Shown: piece after piece, positions 2,564-37,401 of the stretch
Layout: every line of letters begins with the position of its first letter
How positions within the stretch are numbered: the first letter of the stretch is position 1
NCBI GenBank assembly: GCA_048213135.1
Contig: PS015348.1
Coordinates: 25,786-63,895, forward strand
Reading direction: 5' to 3'
Origin: Reclinomonas americana ATCC 50394
Lineage: Eukaryota
Length of the DNA stretch: 38,110 nucleotides
Program-made: the position numbers and the translations under genes
The notes under the pieces: generated by a model
The model's database searches: none
What the model was told of the DNA's origin: nothing
What the model saw: only the letters and a program-made list of their open reading frames with translations

Positions 2564-3456
2564 CTACTTGCGCACTCCTGCCGACTCCCCACCCACCGTG
2601 TACCCCGGCACAATCGTCTGCCGCCGCGGTGGCGAGTCCGACGCCAGCATGGGACCGCGAATGGTCACACCCGGCAACTCAAACGGCACCTGCAAATACT
2701 CGAGCAGCATGAAAACCGACTGCTTGGTGTCGTCGGTCGGCAGCGTGCAGTCGAACACCTCGTCGGCCACCATGCGCTCGTAGATCCGCTCAATGTCGTC
2801 GACAAACGTGTTGTCGCGCTCGCCCAACTTGGCGCGAATCTGCGCGGCGTCGGCGCCCGCGTCCGACAGTTCCCGCTCGTACCGCTCCTGCAGGCGCATC
2901 TTTTGCACCCAGTCGGTGGCCTGGCACAGCACGTAGCTGCAGTGGAAGGCGCCGTCGACGGCGCGCGCAATGTCGGCCCAGTAGTCGAGGGCGCGCTCGN
3001 NNNNNNNNNNNNNNNNNNNNNNNNNNNNNNNNNNNNNNNNNNNNNNNNNNNNNNNNNNNNNNNNNNNNNNNNNNNNNNNNNNNNNNNNNNNNNNNNNNNN
3101 NNNNNNNNNNNNNNNNNNNNNNNNNNNNNNNNNNNNNNNNNNNNNNNNNNNNNNNNNNNNNNNNNNNNNNNNNNNNNNNNNNNNNNNNNNNNNNNNNNNN
3201 NNNNNNNNNNNNNNNNNNNNNNNNNNNNNNNNNNNNNNNNNNNNNNNNNNNNNNNNNNNNNNNNNNNNNNNNNNNNNNNNNNNCTGCTGGCGCGGGCGTA
3301 GACGCCGGGGGTGAGGAGGGAGCGGTCGAAAAAGGCCACGCCGTTTTTCACCGAGGAGGGGTTGGCTTGCCAGAGGCGGGAGATCTCCGTCATGCGTTCC
3401 ATGTAGTGGGCGGCCCAGAGGAGGGACATGGCGGCGGAGGTGGGGGGGAGGGGGTA
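2564..3456 (-). CDS. Terminal exon of a deoxynucleoside/thymidylate-kinase-like P-loop protein
   Basis: Joining the flanks of the 3000-3282 gap directly gives a continuous frame ..VAFFDRSLLTPGVYARASSERALDYWADIA..VQKMRLQER.., containing the DRS motif and a lid-like RLQER. A polypyrimidine tract plus TAG acceptor lies at 3457. The P-loop exon was not seen and probably lies in the 3591-4123 gap. Confidence 0.5.
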
Positions 3457-4379
3457 CTAGAAAGGGGAAGGGGAAGGGGAAGGCAAGTGAGAAGGCGAGG
3501 CAACGAGTGGTCTCGCTCTATAGTTCTCTCCAGTGCGCTAGCCTACGTCTCTCTCTCTGTCACCCTCTCTGTCTCTCTCCAACTCTTTCGNNNNNNNNNN
3601 NNNNNNNNNNNNNNNNNNNNNNNNNNNNNNNNNNNNNNNNNNNNNNNNNNNNNNNNNNNNNNNNNNNNNNNNNNNNNNNNNNNNNNNNNNNNNNNNNNNN
3701 NNNNNNNNNNNNNNNNNNNNNNNNNNNNNNNNNNNNNNNNNNNNNNNNNNNNNNNNNNNNNNNNNNNNNNNNNNNNNNNNNNNNNNNNNNNNNNNNNNNN
3801 NNNNNNNNNNNNNNNNNNNNNNNNNNNNNNNNNNNNNNNNNNNNNNNNNNNNNNNNNNNNNNNNNNNNNNNNNNNNNNNNNNNNNNNNNNNNNNNNNNNN
3901 NNNNNNNNNNNNNNNNNNNNNNNNNNNNNNNNNNNNNNNNNNNNNNNNNNNNNNNNNNNNNNNNNNNNNNNNNNNNNNNNNNNNNNNNNNNNNNNNNNNN
4001 NNNNNNNNNNNNNNNNNNNNNNNNNNNNNNNNNNNNNNNNNNNNNNNNNNNNNNNNNNNNNNNNNNNNNNNNNNNNNNNNNNNNNNNNNNNNNNNNNNNN
4101 NNNNNNNNNNNNNNNNNNNNNNNCTCTCGAATTCCTTCTTTCTATCTTCTGTCGCTTCGTGCTCTGCGGCCTGCATGTGCGTGGTTACGCTCCACCTGCG
4201 TTACTCCCTTTGTCTGTAGTGCACAAGATCATTGATCGCCATGCGCAACTGCATGCGAGTGCGTGCAACAAGCGGTGATCATTTGCGCGCTATATCCTGT
4301 GTGCTTCTCTGTCACTGTGTGCGTTCTCTTGTTTCCTGCTCTGCTCTCTTCACGGCACATGGTGAGTTCTGTTGGCTGC

Positions 4380-4933: not shown

Positions 4934-4961
4934 NNNNNNNNNNNNNNNNNNNNCGTAGTAC

Positions 4962-5735: not shown

Positions 5736-6130
5736 ACAATGTCGGTGCGTGTTTTTTCCTGTGTGTTCTGTCGTTGCTCTTGCTGTGTGTTTGACTCGTC
5801 GCGTGGCAGTTCTCTGTTCGTGTGAGTGCGGCACATGATTCGTCGCTGTCGGTGATGGTGGAGGGCATGTCGACTNNNNNNNNNNNNNNNNNNNNNNNNN
5901 NNNNNNNNNNNNNNNNNNNNNNNNNNNNNNNNNNNNNNNNNNNNNNNNNNNNNNNNNNNNNNNNNNNNNNNNNNNNNNNNNNNNNNNNNNNNNNNNNNNN
6001 NNNNNNNNNNNCTGGCATCGCAGCGCCTTGGAGCGGGAAGCGCGGTTTGTTTGTCGGCAGTCGTTGCCTTCACGTTTCATCTCTCACCGTCTGCTGTGCC
6101 CACAGCTTGATCAACTTCAATCGTATCAAC

Positions 6131-9100
6131 ATGGCCTTCGAGGCGGTGGAAGAGGCCGTGCGTCTGCGCTGTCAACGAGCACTGGCTCAGTTCAGTCGCG
6201 ATCATCCCGATTTTGATGTGCGGGCGTGGGTGCCAAGCTTCACGCCTGCTGGGATGAATGCAGTGACAGTGAAGGCATGGCGTGAGCGACATGCTCCACT
6301 TGATCCCTCACGAGTCAAGTTGTTCGAGGAGAAGCAGCCTGTAATGTTGGCATGGCATGCTGCATTCGACTCCGACCCCTCATCCGACCCTCCGTGTGAC
6401 GGATTGGATACGACGGCACTGCACACCATCATGCTTTATGGTGGCTTTGTTCAGGATGACGGTCGCAAGCTGCTGCTGTTTGACTGTGCCGATGAACGGA
6501 AGGCTGTGCAGGAGCTTCACAGTGTCAGAAACAAGTTGAAGCACGATGAGATGACATTGACAGCTGTCACTGTGCAGCATTACCTTGGTGACGGCGGTGT
6601 TTTCCTCTCCATCCTCTCTCGACTGCAGCTGGCGGCCGATGAGCGTGCTCGATTCTGTGGTCGTATCTGTGAGGCACGCCACGCTCGTCACATTGTAGAT
6701 ACATTCGAGGAGCGACTGAATCAGCTGGCTGTCCGTGAGATGGTCTATTATCACGAAGACGAGAGTGTGCGCAAGGACATGCAGATGTATGTGCCACTGC
6801 TGTGCTCCCGTGATCGTGACGTCTCATCGCAAGACAAGATGGCGGATCTGTTGACGGAGGTGGATGTCTTCCTCTCCAACGCCAACACCACTCAGCGTGT
6901 GTTGATGCTGTTTGGCAACAGTGGTGCCGGCAAGACCACCACCATGTCGGTGCTGGCCGAGCGAGCGTGGCGACAGTGGCAGACGGGAGTGAGTCGACGG
7001 GTGCCTGTGCGTGTGCCTCTTGGTACACTGCGCAATGCCGACGAGCGATTGTTGGAGGAGGCACTGGAGCGACTGTCGCCCGAGTTGGGATTCAGCGAGG
7101 CGGATGTGCGACGATTGAAGGACGAGTCACTGCTGTTGTTGCTTGACGGGTACGACGAGTTATATCATGGTGTGAATCTGTTTGTCAAGAACCAGCTGGA
7201 TGTGTGTCGCGATGTGAAGGTGATAATCACCTGTCGCGGCGATTACGCACTGACGGCACTGGGTAGCGCGACGCAGTATCGAAGGTACTTTGCACCGGTG
7301 GATGCAAGAGGACAGTTGTGCATGCAGCAGCTGATGGAGCGACACATTGCGCCGTTCAACAAGGAGCAGATTGAGGAGTACTTTGGGCGACTGGTGCAAC
7401 TGGGTGGTGCTGACGGTGATGGCGAAGTGCGGTGGTCGACTGCCGAGGAGTACATTCGTGCATTGAAGAGTGTACATGGACTTGATGCACTGGTGGCGAA
7501 TCCATTCATGCTGACAGTGGTGGCTCGTGTGTTGCCGCAATTGGTGGCGAGTGGAGTGCAGCGACCGACTCGGTGCGATGTGTTTGACCGCTTCATTCGA
7601 CAGTGGATTGAGAGAGAGCAGGAGAGGCAGGCTCGTCTTGGTGCAGAACTTGTGCCGAGTGAGGAGACGTGTTTGGCATTCTGTGAGGGACTGGCGCGGT
7701 TGATGCACGAGCGGAATGTGGTGCGCGTGTCGGTGATGTCGATAAGTTCAATTGATGGCGGTGAGGAGGAGGATGATTTTGGCGGCGCTCCACTCGCCTT
7801 GCGACGAGTGGAGGAGGCACCGTTTGACAAGTTTCTCGGGCACAAGAATCAGCATGTGCGAGTGTGCTGTCCGATTGTGCGACGGTATGGGACGACGCAG
7901 TGGGGTTTCGTGCATCTGTCCTTGCTCGAACATTGTGTGGCACGGCATGTGTTTGCGTGGGAGACATGGGATGAGGAGATGAGATTGACGATGCAAGATG
8001 TGCAGCAGCATGTGTTAGCAGTGCGATTGCTGAATGATCGACCGTCGTTGGTGGAGCAGATTGCCGAGGTGGTGCGACGGTCTCCTGCGTTGCAAGCGAG
8101 ACTGTGGGAGGTGATTCTGTTGTCGCGGGTGGTGGATGAGGAGCGCGTGGTAACGGCGGCGGCGAATGCAGCGACGGTGTTGTGTGCAGCACAAGTGTCG
8201 TTGAGTGGGCGAGATCTGTCTGGTGTGCGAGTGAGGGGTGCGGATTTGAGGGACGCGGTGATGCACAGGACGGTGTGGAGGGGAGCGGATTTGCGAGGTG
8301 TGAATGTGTGCATGGCGTTTGCGAGGGAGGCGGATTTCAAAGGGGCGGATGTGTCGGGTGTGAAGTGGCCGAGGATGCCCATAGTGGGTCACACGGATGG
8401 GGTGTATGCAGTAGCAGTGACACCAGATGGTCAGCACATTGTGAGCGGTAGCGATGACGGTACTGTACGAGTGTGGTTGGTGGTAAGCGGCGAGGAGGTG
8501 CGTCGACTGGAAGGCCACACGAGTGCGGTGTGCGCAGTAGCTGTGACACCCGATGGCCAGCATATCGTGAGTGGCAGTGAGGACAAGACTGTACGGGTGT
8601 GGTCGGTGGCGAGTGGCGAGGAGGTGCGCCGACTGGAGGGCCACACGAGTTATGTGAATGCAGTGGCAGTGACACGCGATGGTCAGCACATTGTGAGTGG
8701 CAGTTTGGATGAGACTGTACGAGTGTGGTCAGTGGCAAGTGGTGAGGAGGTGCGCCGACTGGAAGGTCACATGAGTGCAGTATTAACAGTGGCAGTGACA
8801 CTCGATGGCCAGTACATTGTGAGTGGCAGTTGGGACACAACTGTGCGAGTGTGGTCTGTGGCAAGTGGTGAGGAGGTGCGCCGACTGGAAGGTCACATGA
8901 GTGCAGTATTAACAGTGGCAGTGACACCCGATGGCCAGCACATTGTGAGCGGCAGTTTGGACAAGACTGTGCGAGTGTGGTCAGTGGCAAGTGGCGAGGA
9001 GGTGCGACGGTTCGAGGGACACACTGACTACGTGTTCTCTGTCGTTGTCGCTCCCGATGGCCAGCATATTGTGAGTGGGAGCAGGGACGCCACCGTGCGT

Positions 9101-10183
9101 GTGTGGTCATTAGCGAGTGGGGAAGAAGTACGTCGATTGGTGGGACACGGCACCGCAGTGCTGACCGTCGCTTGCACTCCCGATGGCCAATTCATTGTCA
9201 GTGGGAGTGCAGACAAGACTGTGCGTGTATGGTCTGTGGTGAACGTTGAGGCCGTGCGACGGCACGAGGGGCACGTTGAATCGGTGCAGTATTGCGCAGT
9301 AACTCCCGATGGTCAGTTCGTCGTAAGTGGGGGTGATGAGAAGACAGTGCGAGTGTGGTCGGTGGCAAGTGGCGAGGAGGTGCGGCGGTTCGAGGGGCAC
9401 ACTGCCGCTGTGTGGTCGGTTTGCATCACCCCCGATGGTCAGTATGCGGTGAGTGGTGGTGCTGATAAGACACTGAGAATGTGGTCACTGGCGAGTGGCC
9501 AAGAGTTGCGACGGTTTGAGGGACACTCGAGGACTGTGCTTTTTGTCACCGTGACTCCCGATGGTCAGCATCTGGTGAGTGGGAGTAAAGACCTATCACT
9601 GAGAATGTGGTCGCTGGCATGTGGCGAGGAGGTGCGACGGTTTGGGGGACACAGTGGTCGAGTGAATGCGATTATCGTCACTTCCGATTGTCAGCACATC
9701 GTGAGCGGGAGCAACGACACCACTGTGCGAGTGTGGTCATTTGTGAGTGGTGAAGAAGTGCGCCGGTTGGAAGGCCATATCGATGCAGTGCATTCTGTTA
9801 CCGTCACTCCCGATGGCCAGCACATTGTCAGTGGAAGTGCCGACAACACCGTGCGTTTGTGGTCTTTCACAACTGGCGAGTTGGTGCGGCGATTTACTGC
9901 ACATATTGGACAAGTGTTTTCAGTTGCCATCACGCCAGATGGAGAGCACATTCTGAGCGCAGGCTGGGACAAGGTCGTGCGAGTGTGGTCCGTGGCGAGT
10001 GGCTTGGAGATTCAACGCTTTGAGGGACACAACGATCCGCTGTTATGTGTCGCCGTGACTCCTCAGCACATTGTTAGTGGAGGCGCTGACAAGACAATGC
10101 GAGTATGGTCACGGGCTGGAATGCTTCAGCGTATTATTGGCTCATTCCTCCCCGACTTTTCCGACGTCAGACAAGATTCGTGA
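6131..10183 (+). CDS. Intronless NLR-like protein: putative HEPN - NACHT - pentapeptide repeats - 14 WD40 (1350 aa)
   Basis: ATG at 6131. Walker A GNSGAGKT, Walker B LLLLLDGYDE, VIITCR, NPF, FVHLSLLE; pentapeptide repeats (RDLSG, ADLRD, ADLRG, ADFKG); 14 GH..W repeats. The N-terminus has LDTTAL and ELHSVRNKLKH. Confidence 0.92.
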   Translation: MAFEAVEEAVRLRCQRALAQFSRDHPDFDVRAWVPSFTPAGMNAVTVKAWRERHAPLDPSRVKLFEEKQPVMLAWHAAFDSDPSSDPPCDGLDTTALHTIMLYGGFVQDDGRKLLLFDCADERKAVQELHSVRNKLKHDEMTLTAVTVQHYLGDGGVFLSILSRLQLAADERARFCGRICEARHARHIVDTFEERLNQLAVREMVYYHEDESVRKDMQMYVPLLCSRDRDVSSQDKMADLLTEVDVFLSNANTTQRVLMLFGNSGAGKTTTMSVLAERAWRQWQTGVSRRVPVRVPLGTLRNADERLLEEALERLSPELGFSEADVRRLKDESLLLLLDGYDELYHGVNLFVKNQLDVCRDVKVIITCRGDYALTALGSATQYRRYFAPVDARGQLCMQQLMERHIAPFNKEQIEEYFGRLVQLGGADGDGEVRWSTAEEYIRALKSVHGLDALVANPFMLTVVARVLPQLVASGVQRPTRCDVFDRFIRQWIEREQERQARLGAELVPSEETCLAFCEGLARLMHERNVVRVSVMSISSIDGGEEEDDFGGAPLALRRVEEAPFDKFLGHKNQHVRVCCPIVRRYGTTQWGFVHLSLLEHCVARHVFAWETWDEEMRLTMQDVQQHVLAVRLLNDRPSLVEQIAEVVRRSPALQARLWEVILLSRVVDEERVVTAAANAATVLCAAQVSLSGRDLSGVRVRGADLRDAVMHRTVWRGADLRGVNVCMAFAREADFKGADVSGVKWPRMPIVGHTDGVYAVAVTPDGQHIVSGSDDGTVRVWLVVSGEEVRRLEGHTSAVCAVAVTPDGQHIVSGSEDKTVRVWSVASGEEVRRLEGHTSYVNAVAVTRDGQHIVSGSLDETVRVWSVASGEEVRRLEGHMSAVLTVAVTLDGQYIVSGSWDTTVRVWSVASGEEVRRLEGHMSAVLTVAVTPDGQHIVSGSLDKTVRVWSVASGEEVRRFEGHTDYVFSVVVAPDGQHIVSGSRDATVRVWSLASGEEVRRLVGHGTAVLTVACTPDGQFIVSGSADKTVRVWSVVNVEAVRRHEGHVESVQYCAVTPDGQFVVSGGDEKTVRVWSVASGEEVRRFEGHTAAVWSVCITPDGQYAVSGGADKTLRMWSLASGQELRRFEGHSRTVLFVTVTPDGQHLVSGSKDLSLRMWSLACGEEVRRFGGHSGRVNAIIVTSDCQHIVSGSNDTTVRVWSFVSGEEVRRLEGHIDAVHSVTVTPDGQHIVSGSADNTVRLWSFTTGELVRRFTAHIGQVFSVAITPDGEHILSAGWDKVVRVWSVASGLEIQRFEGHNDPLLCVAVTPQHIVSGGADKTMRVWSRAGMLQRIIGSFLPDFSDVRQDS
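8384..10110 (+). repeat. Coding tandem array of 126-bp WD40 units with high internal identity
   Basis: Consensus EGHxxxVxxVAVTPDGQHIVSGSxDxTVRVWSVASGEEVRRL repeated 14 times. Confidence 0.95.
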
Positions 10184-10464: not shown

Positions 10465-13400
10465 TCACGGTAATCTCCGCTTGCTGTGCTGCTCCAGCAG
10501 CGCCGTGCACCTCGCTCTTCTGTCCTCCGCCGACCACAGCTCCGGATACTGCCATCACCCGTAAAGTCAGCAGAGACTTCAACAGACTCGCCAACAACAA
10601 ACAAACACACAACACTCACCATCATCGCCAACTTGGTAACCTTCTCGGCATGTGTGGGAATGAAATTCCAGTGGATAATATACGTGAGCTGCAAGTTCTC
10701 CGTGAGCTGCAGGAGGTCGTTCTGATGCCTGAAAGCAAAGTGGCCTGCGAGGAGCACAGCGACAGTGCGGTTAGTCGAGGGTCACGGAATTCTAACAATC
10801 GATAGCTCGACCCACTCTCTCACTCCCATCCATGCCTCAAAAAGAAAGATGCCCGCATTCCGAACCCCTATGATAGAACCGACAAGCAACCCTCAGCACA
10901 ACCTTGCCTAACTCAGTCACTCCAAGCTTCAAAAGAAAGAGGCATGGATAAGCATCCTTCGCTCCCTCAACGTATAGAAGAGACGCTCACTGTCTCTCGT
11001 CGAGAAGAAAAATATGACTCGCATCCCTTAACATCCTCGCGTCTCACTCATTGACGTACAAGTCGCTCAACATCACAAACAACAGAGAGGAAAAGCACCC
11101 TCGCAGCAGGGAAGGGCACCACCANNNNNNNNNNNNNNNNNNNNCAATTGTTCATCGACAAAAATGGTGGGCCACGCACGCATCACCAAACAAAAGAACA
11201 AGATTCTCTTGCTCCTTGCTGCATGCAGGAGTCAAGGTGAGATTGCCATGAATGACGATCACCCTGCTCAGATGGCGGCAATCAAACTCTGTATGGACAG
11301 AATGCTTCCCGTCTCCTTGTTTGAGAAAGAAGGAAAGCAGAGAGTTCACACTCAACGAAATCTCACTTCAAACTACTTCCCACATGTCCCTCCCTCCCCT
11401 TTCCCCTTTCCCTTCACTTATGCTACGTGCAGGAGTCAAGGTTCACACTCAACGATATCGCACTTCCTCAGCACAAACTACNNNNNNNNNNNNNNNNNNN
11501 NNNNNNNNNNNNNNNNNNNNNNNNNNNNNNNNNNNNNNNNNNNNNNNNNNNNNNNNNNNNNNNNNNNNNNNNNNNNNNNNNNNNNNNNNNNNNNNNNNNN
11601 NNNNNNNNNNNNNNNNNNNNNNNNNNNNNNNNNNNNNNNNNNNNNNNNNNNNNNNNNNNNNNNNNNNNNNNNNNNNNNNNNNNNNNNNNNNNNNNNNNNN
11701 NNNNNNNNNNNNNNNNNNNNNNNNNNNNNNNNNNNNNNNNNNNNNNNNNNNNNNNNNNNNNNNNNNNNNNNNNNNNNNNNNNNNNNNNNNNNNNNNNNNN
11801 NNNNNNNNNNNNNNNNNNNNNNNNNNNNNNNNNNNNNNNNNNNNNNNNNNNNNNNNNNNNNNNNNNNNNNNACATGTCCCTCCCTCCCCTTCCCCCTTTC
11901 CCTTCACTTATGCTGCATGCAGGAGTCAAGGTTCACACTCAAGGATATCGCACTTCAAACCAAACTACTTCCCCCTGTCCATCCCTCCCCTTCCCCTCGC
12001 CCCTTCCCCTCGCCCCTTCCCCTCCCCTTTCCCCCCTCCCCCTCCCCCCTTCTCCCCCATCTACCCCTTCCCCTGTTACCCCCCCTCCCTTCCTCACCAC
12101 TCGGAAACTGCAACGGATGCAACGTACACACCCGCACCGACTTCTTGCCACCCGCCCCCACCGCCGCCACCGGCGCCTCCATGTACCTCGCCCGCATGTG
12201 CGCCTCATTCCACCCCCCATCCAGCTCCGCAAACCGCGCCGACCCACTAAACACCCCCTTTTCCCGCAGCACCGCCTGCAGCGTCACCTGATCGTTGTCG
12301 CCGGAGACCGAGTTGATCTGCAGCCACCGATCGTAGAGCGCCACCGTGCGCGGACTGGCCGTCACAAAGTAGATGCCGGCGTTGTACATGCCCGGCGCCT
12401 GCCGCACGTACTTGTCGAGGTCGGTGCGCTTGCCGGTGTTGTACTCGTCATCAATGGCAAACGTCACGTCGCACTGAGCGAGGTCGGGGAAGGCGAGCAG
12501 CGGGCGCAGCAGCGACGTGTCGGCGTCCGCGTGGAAAATGGCGAATCCGCGATACAGAATGTGCCGCATGAGAATGTCGCGCTTCTTCAGCATCTCGCGA
12601 TACAGCACCGAGTTGAAGCGCTGCGGCTGATTATCCAGCGCGAAGAACGACGGCGAGAAGAACACCGCCGCCTGCCCCCGCGACGCAAAGCTCTCCGTCA
12701 AGTGCGCCGTCAGCGCCTGCGTCCATGACAGGATCAGAATGCCGCCAAAGCCCGGCGCCGCTGGCACCGCCGGCAGCAACCCGAAATCGAGCGCATTGCA
12801 GAGCCAGTTGTCGAGAAAGTCGTTGAAGCCGCCCGACGCCTCCGTCACCACCAGTACCGAGTTACGCGGGAACTGCAGCAGCACGCGATCCAGCGCCTCC
12901 GCCACCTCCCGCTTCATGTACTGCGAGTCCTCGGCCGGTGGATCAAACGGAGTCGGGTCAATGTCGCCCGTGGGCACCGGCAACGCGATGGGCTCCTCAG
13001 AGGGTGGAGGCGGAGGATCGACAACAGGCGGCGATTCCTCCACAGTTGACGCCTCCTCCTTGTCATGTGGCGGTTGCTCCACCACTGGTTCCTCCTTTGC
13101 AGGTGGTGGAGGTGGAGGTGGAGGTGTCTCCTCCTGAGGCACCTCCTCCTCCGTCACAGTAGTCGCGTTCTTGTCCGACTCTTCCGCGACCTCCAACAGC
13201 GATTGTGGGACTTCGGCATCGGCCGCTGCATCGACGCGATCGAGTGCGGCGACCCACTCTTCCCGCGCACGATCCCTCTGCTTGGTGAGTTGTGCGGCGA
13301 GATTCGCTGCCACATGTGCCACGTGCGACTCGGTGCTCTGCATCTGTCGCGTGATCAGAATGTGCACCGCCAGCATGAGGGTGGCGGTGAGCGCCAGTAG

Positions 13401-13466
13401 TAGAGGCATGGAGCAGCGGCGGAAGGGCCGTAGTGCCTCTGATGAGGTGGGAGTGGTGAGACTCAT
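10465..13466 (-). CDS. Nucleotide-diphospho-sugar transferase (GT77-like), type II membrane protein; exons 13466-12098, 10744-10620, 10548-10465 (about 525 aa)
   Basis: N-terminal TM helix, Pro/Glu stem, NWLC, FHADADT (DxD), YNAGIYF and NDQ motifs. In-phase GT-AG splicing gives FPSG-HFAF..IIHWNFIPTHAEK..YPELW. Confidence 0.85.
11217..11975. repeat. Intronic repeat of about 95 bp (gcaggagtcaaggttcacactcaa..cacttc..aactac), at least 3 copies across a gap
   Basis: Copies start near 11217 (interrupted), 11421 and 11911. Confidence 0.8.
11239..11343 (+). other. 105-bp foreign-looking insertion encoding EIAMNDDHPAQMAAIKLCMDRMLPVSLFEKEGKQR (phage-like)
   Basis: The segment is absent from the sister repeat copies, stop-free in one frame, and flanked by GT on both sides. 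Phage similarity is from recall only. Confidence 0.6.
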
Positions 13467-13654
13467 TTCGCGCGTGGAAGAAACGAGAAAAAACGACGCA
13501 CAGGACGCGGTGACGTCGAGGCGTTTGTTCGCGCGATTTGAGAGGGGGAGGCGTGTGGTGGGTGGTGTGTGGTGGGGAGTGTGTGGTGCACCATGGGAGA
13601 TGTTGTGAGTGGTTGCGGAAGGAGAAGGGTGAGAAAGAGTGACGGGACAGACCA

Positions 13655-14130
13655 ATGTGTCCGAGTGCAACAACCTTTTCGCCTCTTGCTGCATTCACGT
13701 GGCGATGAAAACGTGTGGCACGTATCGGAACGCATGCACCCCACTTGCATCCTTGGCGGCAGCGACAGGAGATACTTGCATCGCGAGGCATCCGTGAAAC
13801 CGTCAAGGAACAGAGTGTCCGAGTACAGGGTCTGTTCTTGCTCTTGCTGTCTTCCTGTGGCGACGTTAACGTGTGGCACGTGCTAATGGACATACAGCAC
13901 ACGCGCTCTGTAAGTGGCAGCGACAGGAGATACTTGCATCGCGGGGCATCCGTGAATTCGAAACCGTCACAGAACAGAGTGCCGAGTACAAATTGTGTTC
14001 GCACTCTTCCTGTCTTCCTTTGGTGACGGAAACGTGTGGTGCGTACTAAAGAATATGTCTGGAACTTGCACGCTTGACGGGGGCGAGAGAAAATACTTGC
14101 ACCCCGAGTAAGTCGCGAAACCGTCACGAA
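13655..14130. repeat. Tandem repeat of about 160 bp, 3 diverged copies
   Basis: gtg(t)ccgagt at 13657, 13815 and 13979; shared aacgtgtgg and atacttgca..gaaaccgtca. Confidence 0.85.
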
Positions 14131-15581: not shown

Positions 15582-17592
15582 ATGGCCAATCGTGCAGTGC
15601 TTCAGGTCTTTGAGGCCTATCAGAAGGCACGCGTCAACTTTGTGCAAACAGTCGCCGAGTTGGCCAATCGGTGAGCGCACACACTGACACACACACTCTT
15701 TCTCTCTCCCTTTCTCTATCTCTGTGCGTGCGACCAGTGACAGTTCATTTCTATCGTCCGTTTACATGACTCAGGGCGTTTACTCACCCCTCCCCTTCGC
15801 ACACACACACACAGACCGGAGAACATTGAGGCTCTCCAGCATGCAGGCGCCATGGCCTTGCTCCGCCCACTCCTCCTCGTTGCGTCTCACCTCAACACAC
15901 ACAAAACACACAAGACGCACACGTGAGAGGGAAATGGCCATGACTGACTCTCTCTCTCTCTCTCTCACACACACTCTCTCTCTCGCACACACACACACAC
16001 ACACTCTCTCTCTCACACACTCACTCACTCACTCTCTCCATCTCTCTCTCACAGGACAACGTGCCCTCGATTCAACAAAGTGCGGCCATGGCACTCGGTC
16101 GACTGGCCTCCTTCTCTGAGGAGCTCGCCGAGGCTGTCGTCAGTGGAGAAATCCTTCCGCAATTGGTCTACTCGTTGTCCGAGCAGAACGTTTCGTCAGT
16201 TTCCTCCCGCGCGCTCTGATGGTGTCCGCTTACATAGTGCGTGTTTTACACANNNNNNNNNNNNNNNNNNNNNNNNNNNNNNNNNNNNNNNNNNNNNNNN
16301 NNNNNNNNNNNNNNNNNNNNNNNNNNNNNNNNNNNNNNNNNNNNNNNNNNNNNNNNNNNNNNNNNNNNNNNNNNTCTCCCTCTTTCTCTCCCTCTCTTTC
16401 TCTCCCTCTTTCTCTCCCTCTCTTTCTCTCCCTCTTTCTCTCCCTCTTTCTCTCCCTCTTTCTCTCCCTCTCTTTCTCTCCCTCTGCCTCCCCCCTCTGC
16501 CTCCCCCCTCTGCCTCCCCCTCTCGCCTCCCCCCTCTGCCTTCTCCCTCTGCCTCTCCCTTCCCCCTCCCCCTTTCCCTCTCTTCCCCTTTCCCCTTCTG
16601 CCGTTCCCCGTCTCCCCCCTATCCCTTTCCCCCTTCCCTTTCGCTCACCTCCCTTTCCCCCTCATCAGGTGTGCTCGTGCCTCGCCCAAATCGCCAAGCA
16701 CTCGTTCGAGCTGGCCGAGTTGGTGGTGGAGGGCGAGATCTTCCCGAAGATCTTCAACCTGCTGAAGGACCTGGACGAGGTGGTGCGCAAGAACGCCGCC
16801 ACCTGCATCCGTGAGATCAGCAAGCACACGCCCGAACTGGCGCAACTGGTGGTGTCGTCCGGTGCTCTCGGAGTCATTGTCGACTACGTGGGCGAGACCA
16901 AGGGCAACAACCGCCTGCCGGGCATCATGACTCTCGGCTACATTGCTGCCTTCTCCGACGCCCTCGCACAACATGTGATTGCCAATGGCGGCGTAGTGCC
17001 GCTGGCGCAGGCGCTGGACTCGGAGAAGGAGGATCACCTGCGTGCGGCCGCTGCCTGGTCACTGGGTCAGATTGGTCGCCACTCGTCAGAGCACTCCAAG
17101 GCCGTGACCGACGCCGAAGTGTTGCCACTGCTGCTCGACGCGTTCCTCGACCCGCAATCGTCGGACGACCTGAAGACCAAGGCCAAGCGCGCACTCAAGT
17201 CGGTTGTGCAAAAATGCTTGCATCTGCCCGCCCTGCAACCACTGCTCTCGCGCGCGCCGGTCAACATTCTCACACACGTCACGGGTCAGTACGCCAAGGT
17301 GCTGCCGGGCGATCGGACAGCAAGACGAGCATTTGTGTCGGACGGTGGTCTGGAGATGCTGCAGCGCATTTCCGAGCACGCACCCGAGGGCTCTGAGTTG
17401 CAGTTTCGTCTCTTCTTCACTGCTCTCCCTCACTCTCTTTGCTCGTGTGCTCATCATTGTCGCTCGTGTTACAGAAAGAACATTGACACGATCAACGCAT
17501 GCTACCCCGACGAGATTGTCAAGTACTACTCACCCGGCTTCTCCAAGAACTTTGACAAGCTCATTGACAACTACGCACCGCCACTCGAGTAA
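15582..17592 (+). CDS. SPAG6: Axonemal central-pair armadillo protein SPAG6/PF16; exons 15582-15670, 15815-15878, 16055-16189, [gap], 16669-17402, 17475-17592
   Basis: MANRAVLQVFEAYQKARVNFVQTVAELANRPENIEALQHAGAMALLRPLLLDNVPSIQQ..LVYSLSEQN, REISKHTPELAQLVV, AAAAWSLGQIGRHS, CYPDEIVKYYSPG. All visible introns are GT-AG and in phase. Confidence 0.95.
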
Positions 17593-18138: not shown

Positions 18139-20621
18139 CTCAACTTGTCATTCAGTTTCTGTCTTCCTCTTTATCACTCTCCCTCACTCTGTCTCTGCTT
18201 CTCTGCATTGCCATCGCTGTCGCAGCTTCTCTTGACTCCTGAGTGTTCCTCGCTCATGTGTCTCCTTCCTTTTCCCTTCCTTTGCATGCACCCCTCTCTC
18301 ATTCTCTCACTGCATGTCACTCTGCTTCTCTGTATTACTCTCTTTCTCTCTCTTTGTGCCTCTGCTCGGTACTTGCATCTCTTCCTCCTTGCACGCTCAT
18401 AGTTCTCCTCCATTTCCCCTTCCTCTTCCCTCCTCCGTCCCCTCAGCCCATCAACACCAGCGACTGGCTGCTGGTGAGCGAGGACAGTGTTCGCCTGCAA
18501 TCACCACGATCGGGCGCCTCGCAAGTGCTGGTGGAGAACGATGCAGTGTTGTTGAACGACGGTGGCATGTGTGGCGTGACACTGCAGCGGTTACCGCTTT
18601 TTGACTTGGTGCGTGTGTGTGAGGCGACGATTATGCACTCGTCTCCCAGATCACTGACACTTGGAAGTGCAGCCTGCCGACTTTTGTGTCGCGGCACCGA
18701 TTCGGGCGCCTCGCAATCGACCGCGCGAGTTGGGCTCACCTGTCGTCACCAAGGACGACGGTCGAGTCATGTGTCACGACAAGAGTGGTCCTCTGCTCTC
18801 CTTTGTTGCCACGGTGCACAATGCGGTGCGTGAGGTGACTGTCAACGGGAGAGAAAGAGCCTCTCCTCATACCATGTTCCTCCCGCTCGCAGCTGGTGAC
18901 ACCAGATGGCAGGGTGTTCACTCGACAGCACATGTGGGCGTCACATCGACTGGATGGGGTCGATCGTGATGCATCGTACTCGTGGAAGACCAGCGAATCA
19001 GTGCTGCTCGTCGACACGGTGGTATCATTGGTCCAGCATCACGGCGACGCCTTCTATCACCTGCTCGGAGAGGTGCTTCCGCGCTTCATGCAAGTGTGGA
19101 ACGTGGTGCGGGAGCAGGAACCGCACGCCCTGCTCCTCGTGCGTGACAATGCGTATGGATCGCACGTGGTGTATGACTATTTCGCACTGCTGGGCATTGG
19201 CAGGGAACGGGTGCGCTTGGGTGTGCATGGCCTGTTCCTTTCACGTCGGAAAGCTCATTCCTGTTGTCGCAGATCCTTCTGAATCCCCCCACAGTGTTGG
19301 CACGACGAGTGCTTGTTGCGCAGGGTGTGCGGGGAGGCGCCGCACAGCCGGCCTTGTTGCATGAAATGTCTCGTGTGTTCCACTCGCTGCATGGCGCGAC
19401 ATTGCGTGCACAGGTTCAGGAATTGAGAAGCAGTTGCGCATCTTGAGCTTTGCTTGTTCGCCAACTGGCTGGGTCTCATCTTAATCTTCGCCACAGAGCA
19501 TAATGAGGAGTGGCACCAATCTGCTCTCCACAATGGTCGCCCTTGGCGGTATGTGCTGGTCATCCAACGACAGGGCACTCGATCGCTTACCACGATGGAG
19601 AGGGTGTGTACTTCTTCTCGCACTTATGCCTTCGTTGTCTCTGACGATTCTTTGTGTGTGGCACAGGTCCTGTCGCTCATTGGCGAGGAGTTCCCGCACT
19701 GGCATGTCTCCTCGTTCGACACCACTCGATCGGCACTGCACAGCGTGGCGCAGTTTGCTCGCAGCGATATTGTGTTGGGGCCACACGGAGCGGCCTTTGC
19801 GCATCGTGCGTTTCTCGCTCGNNNNNNNNNNNNNNNNNNNNNNNNNNNNNNNNNNNNNNNNNNNNNNNNNNNNNNNNNNNNNNNNNNNNNNNNNNNNNNN
19901 NNNNNNNNNNNNNNNNNNNNNNNNNNNNNNNNNNNNNNNNNNNNNNNNNNNNNNNNNNNNNNNNNNNNNNNNNNNNNNNNNNNNNNNNNNNNNNNNNNNN
20001 NNNNNNNNNNNNNNNNNNNNNNNNNNNNNNNNNNNNNNNNNNNNNNNNNNNNNNNNNNNNNNNNNNNNNNNNNNNNNNNNNNNNNNNNNNNNNNNNNNNN
20101 NNNNNNNNNNNNNNNNNNNNNNNNNNNNNNNNNNNNNNNNNNNNNNNNNNNNNNNNNNNNNNNNNNNNNNNNNNNNNNNNNNNNNNNNNNNNNNNNNNNN
20201 NNNNNNNNNNNNNNNNNNNNNNNNNNNNNNNNNNNNNNNNNNNNNNNNNNNNNNNNNNNNNNNNNNNNNNNNNNNNNNNNNNNNNNNNNNNNNNNNNNNN
20301 NNNNNNNNNNNNNNNNNNNNCCAAGACAATGGTGATCGACCGTGCTTTCACGTGGAAGTGCTGCCAGGAACTGGGCACACGCCGCCGAAAACGTGGAATC
20401 CGGTTGCGTAGCCTTCTGGACGATTGTGTTCTGATTTAGCAGCTCATTGGCGTGTGCAGGTGCATGTGATGATGGCCGTGTATCAAGGGTGCAGCACGTA
20501 TGTGTGGTTTGACGAGAGAGCTGGCCTGCAGGATTCGCTGGTGCTCCCGGTGGCACAGGCACGCTGGCTTCTTCGTCACTTGGATGGCGTGTCGCGACGC
20601 GAGGAGAGGGCTGGTGATTGA
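17742..20621 (+). CDS. GT61-like (DUF563/EOGT-type) glycosyltransferase, multi-exon, with N-terminal TM anchor
   Basis: TM VATVMLLAMLMVYVLVV; AFYHLLGEVLPR, VLVIQRQGTRSL, FARSDIVLGPHGAA, HVEVLP; about 8 short GT-AG introns. The paralog shows that the 19822-20320 gap has zero true length. Confidence 0.8.
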
Positions 20622-21379
20622 GGAAGTGAAAACCGGGCGTGCATCTGGCGATGTACCTGTGACCCACAGCGAGCCCGGGTGGCTTGCAAAATTGGTGCAG
20701 CACTGGCTTGTCGAGGGTAGGTAACGGCAAGGGTTGACATCCCGACATCCATTTGCTCAACTTGGAGTCGTCGAGTGTACTGATGACGCTGCTGGCCAGG
20801 TAAGTCGGAATCATGGGCACAGGAGAAAGCCGGTACATTCTTCGTTCTGAGAAGAATATCGGCCTTGCTTGCATGTCGCCGGTGCCACGTAGGCATTAAG
20901 CGGGGCAACCGACAGCTCGAAAGGACCGCGCGCTGTCCGAANNNNNNNNNNNNNNNNNNNNNNNNNNNNNNNNNNNNNNNNNNNNNNNNNNNNNNNNNNN
21001 NNNNNNNNNNNNNNNNNNNNNNNNNNNGGCAAACAATCAAGTAGCTTCCAGTTGAAGATCTATTTACCGAATTTGCTGTGCTGTGTACGATCGCAGAAAA
21101 CGCCCTGCGTCTATGCAAGTGCGTCAAGTCCACTGGTCAACCACGCTTATGCGGTGAAGATCGCAGTTCTCGAGCTTGTTCGGAGCCCCAAGAACGAACA
21201 CACACACACAAGGAACCTGCTGCTGCCTCAAGATTGGTGTCTGTGTTGATGTTTTGGATACGGTTGAACTTGGTCATCAAGACAGCTGTTGCTTGTTTGT
21301 TGGTGAATGAAGTTGTTGTTGTTGTCTCTCGCGGCCAACGAGCAAACGACGTGACTGACATTGGATCGCAATAACTACT

Positions 21380-21441
21380 TTACATCAATGAACATTTGCT
21401 TCTCTGCGGTCTTCTCTCGGAGGCGGCAACGGCATCGTGTG

Positions 21442-21472
<31 letters not shown>

Positions 21473-24400
21473 TGGTTGCTGTTGTTGTTGTTGCTGCTGA
21501 GCTTGGTCGCGACGACGTCTGCACTCTGCCAGCCACCCGATGGCATCCTTCGTATCCGAATCCTCTTCACCAAGCACCGCTCGCCGACCATCCACACACT
21601 CCACCAGCAGTGCCTCTGCCTCGGCCCATCGCTGCTGCTTGGTGAGCACAATGCCATAACCGTACATTGTCACCAACGTGAACTCATGCCTGTCTCCCAT
21701 CACTTCACGTCGTCCCTCCAAGCACTGACGGTACAAATCACCGGCTTCCGCCAGCGATTCGCGTGTATCTTGATGCTCGAGAGAAACAGCAAGATTGTTC
21801 ATCGAAGCAAGAGTGTCCGGATGTCGATCTCCCAGCGATGCTTGCCTCAACTGCAGGCAGTCTCGAATCAACTGAACTCTTTCCTCCAGGCGACTGCTAT
21901 CTCGAATACATGAGGCGACATTGTTCATGGACACCAAGGTGTCGGGATGCTCAGCTCCAAGAACCAATCGTCTCACCTCCCAGCACCGTCGATGCAGTGT
22001 TCCAGAATCGGAATATCGTTTGCGATTAAAGTGGTGTCTTCCCTGCCAGTGCAGCGTCCACAGCGAGTCCGGATGACTCTCACCCAGTGTCGCACACTGC
22101 CGCTCATGACACTGCACCAGCAGCGGCAAGTTGCTCGAATCGTAAGCGAACCACATCAGGCACCGCAACGCATCAATCCTATCCAGCACAGTCATCTCGC
22201 CACTGCCATCCCTCTCCCACTCCTCGCACAAATGCCACGCCTGTTGCCACGCTACGTTACGCTCGTCCAACTGACGAAGCATATTAAACAACCACGCACG
22301 ACATTTTGCCACACCATTGACCAACCGTCGTTGCAGTGGACTCATCGCAACGTCACCATCGGCACGTTGTACACACTCCGTCACGCGTCGCACAATCGAT
22401 AAGGCCACTGCTGTGTCGAATCCCACCGAAGGCATTCCTCCCATGCCACACAATCCAGCTATCCACTCCACCGCCCCACACTGCACCAACAGCCCATTCA
22501 CACCAGCAGCATCACTCGCCCACATGCCATCATCCTCGCCCAACCGTCGCCACACCGTGTGCAGCATACTGAGCAAGTCACGTGACACCAATAGCACACC
22601 GTCGCTGTCATTCCACATATCAATGCCATTCAGCACACAACACACCAGTCGCACAATCAGTCGCTGCGCCCTCGACACTGCACTTCCACACCGACCCACA
22701 ATCCACCCAGCAATCTCATCGTGCACTCGATACTCCACAACCACACTACCACTCTCCCCCACCTGCTCACCACACAACACACGGGCCACACTGTCCATGC
22801 TGCTACTGACACCCACTGTGGCCAGATTTGACAAACACAGACCCTCCAGCACATCCTCCACTCCTTCGCCATCACCACCACCCACCAACTCATTGCGCCG
22901 TGAACGCACTCGCTGCTCCTCCTCCTCACTCATCTCGTCAAACTGTAGTCGCTCACCCACCACCTCGGGTGCACGCTGCCGTCTCTCCCGTGCCAGCGCA
23001 TGCAGTCGCAGTCGACGCACACATTGACCCAACTCCACCAGTCGACCTGCCGCCTCTTCATCTTCATCGGCACTCCCAGAGGTGGTCATATCGGGGATCA
23101 CTCGCAACACACCCAGTGCCACTCGTGCGAGTGCCACTGTCACTGGCAAGCCGAGTTCCTTGCACGCCGTGATCAGCAGCAACACACGACGTGCTGCTGC
23201 TGTCTGCGACATCACATTGCGTTCCAGCAGCTGCGACAGCGCGTCACTACCAATGCCACGCAGCACCTCCTCCAGTTGCGCTCCCACCAGCTGTGCTGCT
23301 GATTGTGACAGCAACCAGCTGCATGATGAACAAGAGAAAGAAAAGAGTGAGTCTTCTCATCCACACAACTCACTCTCACTGAGACTCACTCACCCAACAC
23401 AAGCACTCACTCGCAGTGCACTCTTCTCCTGCTGTCCACTTTCCAGAGCCTCCACAATCCGTCGTCGTACATCCACCGACACCTTGTGAAGCAGTCGCTC
23501 CTCCACCAGCTGCGCAATGTCCTCGTTCTCCACATCTACCACCCGCACACACTCCACCTCTGTCTCGTGCATCATCGAATCACGAATCTCATCTGCCACT
23601 TGTTCATATCGACTCGTCACCACCACAATCGGTGCCACCATTCCATCTGCACAGACACATAATGATGCACATCGAGTCAGGATCCAACATGCAAGCAAGA
23701 ATGAGAATTCTGTCACACATGACGACACGTACCCTCATCAGCACATTGAACAACACTCCTCACTTGCTCCGCCAATCCCACGTTGTCCAGCACCATCACG
23801 CCACTCGATGCATGCATCAACTGCCACAGAAGACGACGCACTGGCTCCACCTCGCCACTCGCCAGCAGCGCATCCACCTGACCGGCCATTCTTCTCCCCT
23901 TCACTTCATCCACTCGCATCTGCGCCGTCACAAAGGCGCGCAGACACTCGCCCAGTGCACTCTCCGCCTGCAGCATGCAGCATAACGAGAGGGAAAGAGT
24001 CAGAATGACACGTCAGAAGAGATGACGCAACATGAAAGACAACATGCATTTTTCTCAGCACACCTTCACATGCTCCGTCGCATCACCCACATGCCCGCGC
24101 ATCTCCACCGACACGGCCGATCCCTTCCATCGACGAGTCGCCAGCAACTCGGTCACCAGCAGCTCGGCCAGGAACGACTTGCCAGTGCCACCATCTCCCG
24201 TCAACATCACCATGATTGGATGGTGTGCTGCGCAAGAATCATCCACCACAGACAACATGATGAGACACATGAATGAGGAGAAGGTAGGCAGGGGAGAAAG
24301 AGAAGGAACACCCAACCTTTAACACCATCCACAATGCGTGTAGCGAGTGAAGCGGCCAGTGCACGTCGACTCGGGAAGCGGAACGCGGTCACTGGATTGA

Positions 24401-25974: not shown

Positions 25975-26387
25975 NNNNNNNNNNNNNNNNNNNNTTCTGT
26001 CACAATAAGAAGCGGAGAAATGCAACAACGCACGCTCCTTCTCCTCCTTTCTCTCTCTTGCACACACACACAGTGGGGAATGACACTGACACACAACAGA
26101 ACAGAGAACACACAAGCTCACTTCCGCTCACAGCAGCAGTAACAGACTTTGTTGTCAACCAAACGAATGAACCATTGAAGTCCAGTCTCTCTCTCCTCTT
26201 CTCCGCTCTCATGCGCCGCGCCACTCACGATGACAGCGATGACGACGACGACGAAGAACCCGAGTCACTGCTGACACGCAAACGACGCATTCGCATGCCC
26301 ACACCTCCTCTTCCACCAATGCTTCCCCGCCTCCTCCCGTGCTGCTGCCTCCACCGCCAGTGCTGCCACCAATGGGTTTGTCTGTGT

Positions 26388-27974: not shown

Positions 27975-28071
27975 TTACATCAATGAACATTTGCTTCTCT
28001 GCGGTCTTCTCTCGGGGCCGGCGGCAACGGCATCATGTGGTTGCTGCTGCTGCCGCTTCTGCTGCTGTTGC

Positions 28072-28138
<67 letters not shown>

Positions 28139-31100
28139 GCTGATCACGGCGGCGTCGACACTCTGCTAGCCACTCGATGGCATCCACAGTCCTCGGATTC
28201 TCTTCACCAAGCACCGCTCGCCGACCATCCACGCACTCCATCAGCAGTGCCTCTGCCTCGGCCCATCGCCGCTGCTTCGCGAGCAGAATGCCGTAGTTAT
28301 ACATTGTCAACAATGTGTCATCGTGCCTGTCACCAAGCACCTCACGTCGTCCCTCCATGCACTCACGGTACAAATCAGCGGCTTCCGCCAGCGATTCGCG
28401 TGTATTTTGATGCTCGAGAGAAACAGCAAGATTGTTCATCGACAAGAGAGTGTCCGAATGTCGATCTCCCAGCGTTGCCCGTGTCAAGCGCAAGCATTCT
28501 CTATTCAGTTGAACCCTTTCCTCCAGGCGACTGTCATCTTTGATGCATACGGCAAAATTGCCCATGGATGCCAACGTGTCTGGGTGCTCAGCTCCAAGAA
28601 GCAGTCGTCGCATTTCCCAGCATCGTTTATCAAGTGGCTCAGCATCAGCAAATTGCTTTAGATTCTTGTGATGATAAGCTTGCCAGTGCAGCCTCCACAG
28701 AGAGTCCGGATGACTTTCACCCAATGTCGCACACTGCCGCTCATGACACTGCATCAACAACGGCAAGTTGCTTGAATCATAAGCAAACCACATCAAGCAG
28801 CGCAGTGCGTCAATCCGATCCAGCACAGTCATCTCGCCACTGTCATCTCTCTCCCACTCCTCGCACAAATGCCACGCCTGCTGCCACGCTGTATGGCAGT
28901 CATCCCACTGACGTAGCAACTCGAACAGCCACGCATGACACCGTGCCATCACAATGGCGAACCGTCGTCGAACTAAACTCGTCTCAACATCACCATCTCC
29001 ACGTTGTCCACATTGAGTCATGCGTCGCACAAGCGACGAGGCCTTCGCGTCGTCGAATCCGATAGAAGGCAGTTTCCCCTTGACACACTGCTCACCAATC
29101 CACTCCACCGCCCCGCACTGCACCAGCAGCCCATTCACGCCAACTGCATCACTCGCCCACATGCCGTCATCCTCGCCCAACCGTCGCCACACTGTGTGCA
29201 GCACACCGAGCAAGTCACGCGACACCAACAGCACACCGTCGCTGTCATTCCACATATCAATGCCATTCAGCACACAACACACCAGTCGCACAATCAATCG
29301 CTGCGTCCGTGACACGGCATCTCCGCAGCGTCCCACAATCCACCCAGCAATCTCATCGTGCACTCGATACTCCACACCACTCCCTCCCACCTGCTCACCA
29401 CACAGCACACGAGCCACACTGTCCATGCTGCCACTGACACCCACCGTCACCAGATTCGACAAGCACAGACCCTCCAGCACAGACTCCACTCCGTCGTCAA
29501 CACCACCAACAATCACCAACTCATCACGCCGTGCCTGAACTCGCTGCTCCTCTTCCTCACTCATCTCGTCAAACTGCAGTCGCTCACCCACCACCTCCGG
29601 TGCACGTCGTCGCCTCTCTTGTGCCAGCTCATGCATGCGCAGTCGACGCACACACTGACCCAACTCCACCAGTCGACTTGCCGCCTCTTCATCTTCATCA
29701 CTACCACCCACAGCCGCCGTCATATCGGGAATCACTCGCAGTACACCCAGTACCACTCGTGCGAGTGCCACTGTCACTGGCAAGCCGAGCTCCTTGCACG
29801 CCGTGATCAGCACCAGAAGACGACGTGCTGCTGCTGTCTGTGACATCACATTGCGCTCCAGCAGCTGCGACAGTGCATCACCACCAACGCCACTCAGCAC
29901 CTCCTCCAGTCGCGCTCCCACCAGCTGTGCTGCTGATTGTGACAACAACCAGCTGCATGACGAGGAAGAAGAGAAATAAGACCTCTTCTTCGCACAAATC
30001 ACTCTCACTCAATCACTCACCCAACACACGCATTCACTCGCAGTGCACTCTTCTCCTGCTGTCCACTCTCCAGCGCCTCTACAATCCGTCGTCGCACATC
30101 CACCGACACCTTGTGAAGCAGTCGCTCCTCCACCAGCTGCGCAATGTCCTCGTTCTCCACATCCACCACCCGGACACACTCCACCTCCGCCTCGTGCATC
30201 ATCGAGTCACGAATCTCATCCGCCACTTGTCCATATCGACTCGTCACCACCACAATCGGTGCCACCATTCCATCTGCACAAAGGCACGCACATGATGCAC
30301 ATCAAGTCAGGATCCGACAACCAAGCAAGAATGAGAATTCTGTCACCCATGACGACACGTACCCTCATCACCACATTGAACAACACTCCTCACTTGCTCC
30401 ACCGATCCGACATTGTCAAGCACCAACACTCCACTCGATGCGTGCATTAGCTGTCGCAGGAGACGACATGCTGGCTCCACCTCGCCGCTTGCCATCAGCG
30501 CATCCACCTGACCGGCCATCCTTCGTCCCTCCATTTCATCCTTCCGCATCTGTGCCGTCACAAAGGCACGCAGACACTCGCCATGAGCACTATCCGCCTG
30601 CAGCATGGCGAGAGGGAAAGAGTCAGCATGACAACAGAAGGAGAACGGCACAACATGACAAGAAAACATGCATGCTCGTCTGCACACACCTTTACATGCT
30701 CCCTCGCATCACCCACATGACCACGCATCTCCACCGACACGGCCGATCCCTTCCACCGACGAGTCGCCAGCAGCTCGGTCACCAGCAGCTCGGCCAGGAA
30801 CGACTTGCCAGTGCCACCGTCACCCGTCAGCACCACCATGATTGGATGGCGTGCTGCGCAAGAATCATCCACCACAGACAATACGATGAGACACGCGAAT
30901 GTGGAGAAGGAAGGGAGGGAGGAAGAGAAGGATCAATCAACCGTCGGAAGCTTCCACAATGCGCGTGGCGAGTGAGGCTGCCAGTGCACGCCGACTGGGG
31001 AAGCGGAATGTGGTCACTGGATTGACAGTGCGGGCCACGAGCGGTGTCTTGAGTGGTCTACTGCTGTCTGGTGCTGTGTGGCACAAGGAGAGTGAGCAAA

Positions 31101-36724: not shown

Positions 36725-37401
36725 GGAAGTGAAAACCGGGCGTGCATCTGGCGATGTACCTGTGACCCACAGCGAGCCCGGGTGGCTTGCAAAATTGGTG
36801 CAGCAGTGACTTGTCGAGTGGTGGGTAACGGCAAGGGTTGACATCCAGACATCCATTTGCTGAATTCGGAGTCGTCGAGTGTACCGATGACGCTGCTGGC
36901 CAGGGAAGTCGGTATCATGGGCACAGGAGAATGCCGGTACATTCTTCGTTCTGAGAAGAATATCGGCCTTGCTTGCATGTCGCCGGTGCCACGCAAGCAT
37001 TGAGCGGGGCAAACGACAGCTCGAAAAAACCGCGCGCTGTCCGAAGGCAAACAATCAAGTAGCTTCCAGGTGAAGATTTANNNNNNNNNNNNNNNNNNNN
37101 NNNNNNNNNNNNNNNNNNNNNNNNNNNNNNNNNNNNNNNNNNNNNNNNNNNNNNNNNNNNNNNNNNNNNNNNNNNNNNNNNNNNNNNNNNNNNNNNNNNN
37201 NNNNNNNNNNNNNNNNNNNNNNNNNNNNNNNNNNNNNNNNNNNNNNNNNNNNNNNNNNNNNNNNNNNNNNNNNNNNNNNNNNNNNNNNNNNNNNNNNNNN
37301 NNNNNNNNNNNNNNNNNNNNNNNNNNNNNNNNNNNNNNNNNNNNNNNNNNNNNNNNNNNNNNNNNNNNNNNNNNNNNNNNNNNNNNNNNNNNNNNNNNNN
37401 N

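Follow-up and report, generated by a model that had tools for sequence, protein, structure and literature searches.

A bacteriophage gene fragment at a unit junction of a Reclinomonas americana minisatellite: possible capture of foreign DNA by break repair

Introduction

How does 105 bp of what looks like a bacteriophage gene come to lie within a tandem repeat of a protist, and is it truly part of the chromosome? The question is raised by a stretch of 38,110 nucleotides from Reclinomonas americana ATCC 50394 (GenBank assembly GCA_048213135.1, contig PS015348.1, positions 25,786 to 63,895 of the forward strand), here called the window, in whose numbering all positions are given. One junction between the units of a local ~97-nt minisatellite is interrupted by an insert that encodes the middle of a small protein of uncultured phages, and the repeat resumes on the far side almost to the nucleotide. 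An original prediction, made from the letters of this stretch alone, had pointed to the insert and offered several claims as to its nature and surroundings. We describe the anatomy of the insertion, the protein family from which the fragment derives and the genomic setting of both, and then weigh whether it is a genuine capture of uncultured-bacteriophage DNA in a protist nucleus, still undecayed and hence a snapshot of the raw input to 'you are what you eat' gene transfer. We give this reading a probability of roughly 0.55.

Results

Anatomy of the insertion

The minisatellite forms a local tandem array with a unit of ~97 nt that extends from ~11,217 to ~11,990 and decays into a C/T-rich microsatellite up to ~12,080. 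Three unit junctions are sequenced, at 11237/11344, 11441 and 11931 (repeat finder families D7, D9 and D6). The latter two are intact and read CAAGGTTCAC, in the wider context ...GCAGGAGTCAAGGTTCACACTCAA..., and at both of them the segments ...GCAGGAGTCAAGGT and GTTCACACTCAA... share a 2-base GT overlap. The first junction, in contrast, reads CAAG-GT-[105]-GT-TCAC. Direct reading and the repeat finder agree that the left segment ends at 11238, that the right segment restarts at 11344, and that the 105 extra bases between them (11239-11343) are bordered by GT on both sides (11237-11238 and 11344-11345).

Both flanks are host repeat. The left flank (11217-11238, plus strand, family D7) is the 22-nt end of a repeat unit, closing with ...CAAGGT; its identity is 100% with 11911-11932 and 91% with 11421-11442. 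The right flank (11344-11440, plus strand, families D9 and D6) is one full 97-nt unit starting GTTCACACTC, with its D9 segment 80-90% identical to the other two copies. It is followed by the next unit, which carries the intact second junction and is truncated by an assembly gap (11441-11481, plus strand), and past the gap by further units containing the third junction (11872-11992, plus strand), all seen by both direct reading and the repeat finder. The register of the repeat used here is that of the repeat finder, as a MAFFT alignment of the three copies placed the left flank wrongly. Tandem Repeats Finder missed the 97-nt array, interrupted as it is by the gap and the insert.

A window-wide comparison shows the insert to be single-copy and the repeat unit to be confined to the local array. 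No inverted repeat bordering the insert appears in the repeat finder's list. Compared with the empty site, then, the insertion is precise, with a duplication of at most a few nucleotides and without terminal inverted repeats, which is the anatomy of end joining. As the host sequence is restored exactly but for the 2-nt GT duplication, the locus supports end-joining capture. The clean insertion with a 2-nt duplication that had been claimed is thus borne out, with correct coordinates, and the translation of the insert agrees with the 35-residue in-frame peptide that had been quoted.

Other structural features of the locus were also considered. A transposon is ruled out by the absent terminal repeats and by the duplication of 2 nt only. 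The insert ends are GT...AG on the plus strand (AAG/GTGAGA ... GAGAG/), as in a spliceosomal intron, but this candidate is rejected: the GT is host sequence and no plus-strand gene is evident there. Direct reading also reveals a perfect 10-nt palindrome, CTGCATGCAG, at 11219-11228, 10 nt 5' of the insertion point. The third repeat copy also has it in perfect form (11913-11922), the second only imperfectly. The palindrome may mark a fragile site.

Source family of the fragment

The insert translates in frame, without a stop, and its 35-residue translation belongs to a family of metagenomic proteins, typically of ~125-160 aa. A phmmer search of 1.84 billion representative proteins returned 86 matches at E<=1e-3, five of them at E<=1e-10, the best (P0003, E 1.3e-14) being identical at 35/35 residues. 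The matched proteins have ~100-200 residues, and the part that aligns with the fragment is internal. When two full-length members were used as queries in word-indexed searches, 404 of 634 and 472 of 482 candidates proved to be relatives. Their contigs are up to 37 kb long, their source labels are jgi, ena, lgn, ncbi and metaclust, and almost all are unnamed or annotated as 'hypothetical'. The family consensus over the fragment is EIAMNDEHPAQxAAIKLCMDRMLPVSMFEKEGKQR.

A profile of the family (A1; an alignment of 24 members with 142 positions) has one match among the 1029 six-frame pieces of the window, namely the insert (plus strand, 35 codons, E 4.3e-23), and no second one. The similarity is confined to profile positions 74-108 of 142 and stops at both junctions. 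What the window contains is therefore the gene's middle quarter. Of the features of a complete gene it has neither start nor stop, nor the basic RGRPKG motif at the N-terminus, the KELKxLLINSAG helix or the C-terminal SAVNITISGIGG tail, and the insert is flanked by host repeat. That the homology is bounded by the junctions, with no other piece of the gene in the window, supports the capture of a fragment, one severed at arbitrary positions within its gene.

Deposited phages do not appear to contain close relatives. The 35-residue peptide alone matches no family in Pfam or PHROGs at E<=10, tblastn of the peptide against 50,697 deposited phage records gives chance-level matches only (E>=3), and blastn of the insert finds no match in deposited phages or Escherichia coli genomes. 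A full-length relative (P0005) has no match in phage and plasmid collections. With no match in E. coli, plasmids or deposited phages, an origin of the insert from a cloning host or vector is unlikely.

Two of the nearest database proteins are unusual in themselves. The last ~20 residues of P0003 diverge from the family and resemble what we take to be translated sequencing adaptor, which suggests as its origin a short contig that had not been trimmed. P0004 matches the fragment at 97% identity; its N-terminal 76 residues match the Bacteroidota FtsL-like family PF19579 (E 1.6e-5) and are joined to the C-terminal half of the phage family. Either the metagenome contig is chimeric, or the fusion hints at the host group of the phage.

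Genomic position of the family and the terminase question

A scan of 185,579 prokaryotic species genomes yielded four loci that carry the family gene (L001-L004), all in metagenome-assembled genomes (MAGs) of unrelated taxa. In L001, L002 and L004 there is an overlap of 4-8 nt between the family gene and the start of a terminase large subunit gene (phrog_2, E 1e-46 to 1e-48). Portal genes lie downstream in L002 and L004, the latter also having a primase/helicase gene. In L003 the family gene is at the contig end, and the locus contains DNA polymerase, primase/helicase and lysozyme-like genes. The L002 terminase is at most 28% identical to that of any deposited phage. This places the family gene where a small terminase subunit would lie, in a podovirus-like lineage that is uncultured. 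The proposed resemblance to small proteins of uncultured tailed phages is supported both by the match to the family consensus and by the neighbouring terminase large subunit in three of the four loci.

In L001, an HNH endonuclease gene (2013-2528; phrog_99, E 1.6e-48) lies directly 5' of the gene in the small-terminase position. An HNH gene at this place is the arrangement of HNH-assisted packaging modules.

Position and homology do not lead to the same answer, since the family core shows no homology to a recognised small-terminase family. The four family proteins of these loci have no PHROG match (16 proteins scanned). Among 15 members scanned, the N-terminal extension of P0009 alone matches the small-terminase family phrog_309 (E 0.0012), and the conserved core has no match. 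Half of the 24 full-length members match DUF5681 (PF18932) at E<=1, the best at 25.5 bits (E 2.1e-5), and none reaches the gathering cut-off of 27.5 bits; the link to DUF5681 is therefore sub-threshold and only weakly suggested by sequence. A DUF5681 protein was detected in the virion proteome of a Salmonella phage (PMC8954984). A basic N-terminal RGRPKG/AT-hook-like motif is present in 7 of the 24 members. The profile gives a chance-level match only against sequences in the PDB (E 0.28), and an AlphaFold2 model built on the A1 alignment consists of three helices (pLDDT 56.5, pTM 0.24) and is too poor for a fold search. Of the earlier label 'DUF5681/terminase-small-subunit-like', the part that stands is the genomic position; as to DUF5681, the fragment itself has no Pfam match and its best relative falls below the cut-off. 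In the window, no packaging genes adjoin the insert and its neighbours are eukaryotic genes.

Host genes around the insert

Upstream of the array lies an NLR-like gene on the plus strand (6014-10183), whose open frame of 1,389 residues encodes a NACHT domain (33.6 bits against a cut-off of 26.7) together with a pentapeptide repeat and 14 WD40 stretches. The stop codon of the frame, at 10183, is 1,055 bp from the insert, as the original prediction's figure of about 1 kb implied, a proximity that has no demonstrated meaning. The WD40 part (9000-10110, plus strand) is a tandem repeat at the DNA level, with 8-9 copies of a 126-nt unit that are 60-80% identical and encode very regular 42-residue blades.

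On the other side is an open reading frame for a glycosyltransferase on the minus strand (12098-13694; Pfam Nucleotid_trans, 53.4 bits), for which an Atlas search gives a lead, and only a lead, to haptophyte-like glycosyltransferase clusters. A search for homologues of this protein retained none of 6967 candidates at E<=1e-10, a threshold that was probably too strict. The frame remains open to 11958 through a low-complexity G/E/R tract, which is the C/T microsatellite read on the opposite strand. This tract (12098-11958) is probably intron read-through that a gene caller could mistake for a C-terminal tail, and it produces a spurious match to the tail of ribosomal protein S10 in the PDB search.

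An intron of 1,353 nt is predicted on the minus strand at 10745-12097, with a donor G/GTGAGG at 12098/12097 and an acceptor CAG/ at 10745. The putative second exon (10744-10620, 125 nt) is phase-compatible and ends at another GTGAGT. The insert thus probably lies inside an intron of the glycosyltransferase gene, in antisense orientation. The description of the repeat as intronic is accordingly plausible in so far as an in-frame GT-AG model can be built, but the checks on the second exon came back empty: Pfam finds no families in the downstream minus-strand open reading frames, and Atlas no usable match for the 42-residue exon product. The PDB search brought a low-complexity match only. The repeat and the NLR-like gene seem to lie in two separate transcription units that converge.

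Further along the window, two open frames on the minus strand (21383-23356 and 27978-30008) encode TPR_10/TPR_12 repeats with poly-Q tails. They are 79% identical over 655 residues and seem to be tandem paralogues ~6.6 kb apart; no NB-ARC or NACHT domain was recognised in the N-terminal half of either. Scans of the window for Rfam families and tRNAs gave no match.

Assembly context

The window contains 11 runs of N. Two of them border the sequence that holds the insert, at 11125-11144 on the left (20 N) and 11482-11871 on the right (390 N). The others are located at 3000-3283, 3591-4123, 4934-4953, 5876-6011, 16253-16374, 19822-20320, 20942-21027, 25975-25994 and 37081-37401. Three runs are exactly 20 N long, which looks like the smallest gap a scaffolder would set. 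Another small island between gaps (3284-3590, 307 bp) appears to be ordinary host sequence.

Discussion

A model for the origin of the insert

On balance, the anatomy of the locus slightly favours the view that end-joining repair captured a foreign DNA fragment without function. The chromosome would have broken at the first unit junction of the ~97-nt minisatellite, 10 nt past the 10-nt palindrome, and the break would have been mended by non-homologous or microhomology-mediated end joining. In the course of repair, ~105 bp of exogenous double-stranded DNA would have been ligated in, and fill-in of a 1-2-nt overhang could account for the GT duplication. The fragment would derive from the middle of the small-terminase-position gene of uncultured podovirus-like bacteriophages, and a plausible route of entry is ingestion by the host of phage or of infected bacteria.

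Having neither start nor stop, lacking both ends of the protein and lying antisense to the host gene, the fragment is most likely functionless. A function is very unlikely whether the insert is genuine or artefactual. If genuine, it most likely represents a neutral scar left by repair and an unfiltered sample of the foreign DNA that reaches the nucleus.

Alternatives to capture by repair

The chief competitor is an artefact, in which co-sequenced phage DNA from a non-axenic culture was joined to the host repeat by chimeric reads, template-switching or gap filling, the insertion being absent from the chromosomes. Several facts weigh for it and against capture. The weakest point of the finding is that the insert sits in an island of only 337 bp (11,145-11,481) between the 20-N and 390-N gaps, in a stretch with 11 gaps in 38 kb; besides the insert, the island has 72 nt of unique sequence and 22 nt of repeat on its left and 1.4 repeat units on its right, and it may rest on very few reads. 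It lies inside a tandem repeat, which assemblers handle badly, and the 'empty site' is deduced from two paralogous sister units (80-100% identical), not from an allele. Base composition has no discriminating power, since the GC content of the insert (47.6%) is close to that of the island flanks (47.8%; window, 55.3%). The peptide has zero amino-acid differences from a contemporary database protein, and because the 35-residue core is highly conserved (among 249 fetched proteins, 2 are identical at 35/35 residues, 24 at 34/35 and 31 at 33/35), this identity proves neither recency nor donor. The closest record, P0003 (154 aa), itself comes from a single 735-bp contig; low-quality public data hold this phage lineage, and the phage may have been present in the same DNA preparation. 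What speaks against an artefact is chiefly the geometry of the joins. Both junctions fall within 107 bp and restore the same 97-nt phase to within 2 nt, so that, for a chimera to have formed in the library, host and phage DNA would have to be joined twice, independently and in one phase; by reasoning rather than computation, two such events would rarely restore the unit. In addition, the 2 nt shared at the joins are too short for overlap- or k-mer-based misjoining, such that reads with each junction must exist, and the 72 nt on the left of the island are not phage sequence. We therefore regard an artefact as possible but doubtful, and capture by repair as the better account of the two.

The remaining alternatives accept the insertion as real. 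The piece might have been copied secondarily, by templated repair or gene conversion, from a larger bacterial, prophage or earlier horizontally transferred segment of the host genome, or have come from the DNA of an associated bacterium that carried the phage. Relatives of the family do occur in contigs binned with bacterial and archaeal MAGs, and P0004 is fused to a Bacteroidota FtsL-like N-terminus, but all four MAG loci resemble pieces of phage genomes, not chromosomes, and the 38 kb hold no other piece of the gene; we consider such a secondary copy improbable. Far less credible still is the notion that the minisatellite is a dedicated trap that stores invader DNA as a spacer-like memory tied to the neighbouring NLR-like gene. 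The repeat position of the insert and the nearby NACHT-WD40 gene invite it, and with 490 nt between the intact junctions and a period of 97, ~4 further unit junctions are concealed in the 390-N gap. The visible part of the array points the other way: only one of three junctions is occupied and the other two are intact, the repeat has no further copies in the window, neither acquisition machinery nor an RNA family was detected there, the NLR-like gene and the repeat seem to be transcribed as separate, convergent units, and a bacteriophage does not infect a eukaryotic host. The systematic spacer-like capture that had been suggested finds no support in what can be seen, as the window shows no further foreign piece of this family. 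It is equally far-fetched that the minisatellite is a recurrent landing site, with different foreign pieces at the same GT in units hidden by the gap or elsewhere in the genome, though if this were so a eukaryotic repeat array would be archiving environmental DNA.

Significance

If capture by repair is correct, DNA of a non-infecting bacteriophage entered a protist nucleus and was ligated into a chromosome by ordinary break repair. All models of prokaryote-to-eukaryote gene transfer presume such a first step, on which selection has not yet acted. Pieces this short are rarely caught because they are usually dismissed as contamination. A genuine case would justify a genome-wide census of micro-insertions in microbial eukaryotes, measuring the rate of influx before selection. 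Should the insert be an artefact, it would serve as a warning, being a contaminant inside a host repeat within a scaffold, missed by contig-level decontamination. The literature searched contains no report of a sub-gene phage fragment in a protist intron, which does not deny that such cases exist elsewhere.

Comparison with known systems

The source gene is similar to phage small-terminase and DUF5681 genes in lying directly 5' of the terminase large subunit (three of four loci), but differs from them in that its family scores below the DUF5681 cut-off and its core has neither a PHROG nor a solved structure to which it can be assigned. The locus also recalls CRISPR-type spacer acquisition, as a piece of phage DNA is found between repeat sequences. 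The resemblance ends there: this is a single 105-bp insert in a eukaryote, two of the three junctions are empty, there is no leader and there are no acquisition genes, and the phage is unable to infect the host.

Transfer from phages to eukaryotes has been described for whole functional genes, such as bivalve lysozymes (PMC5303276) and, in insects, cdtB from the APSE phage (bioRxiv 10.1101/2021.02.03.429655). There, too, DNA of ultimately bacteriophage origin has ended up in a eukaryotic nuclear genome. The genes in those cases are complete, expressed and selected, whereas the present insert comprises 35 mid-gene codons, antisense and in a probable intron.

The closest parallel is filler-DNA capture. 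Linear fragments are known to be captured at breaks, both in yeast, with transformed DNA, and in nuclear genomes, with DNA from organelles (PMC1976456, PMC2820518). Like the nuclear insertions of mitochondrial and plastid DNA (numts and nupts) and the yeast events, the insert is a short, functionless fragment that is precisely placed. Microhomology or duplication at the joins amounts to 0-2 nt, and neither terminal repeats nor a transposase are involved. It differs from them in its donor, which here would be a bacteriophage gene from outside the cell rather than organellar, transposon or experimentally introduced DNA.

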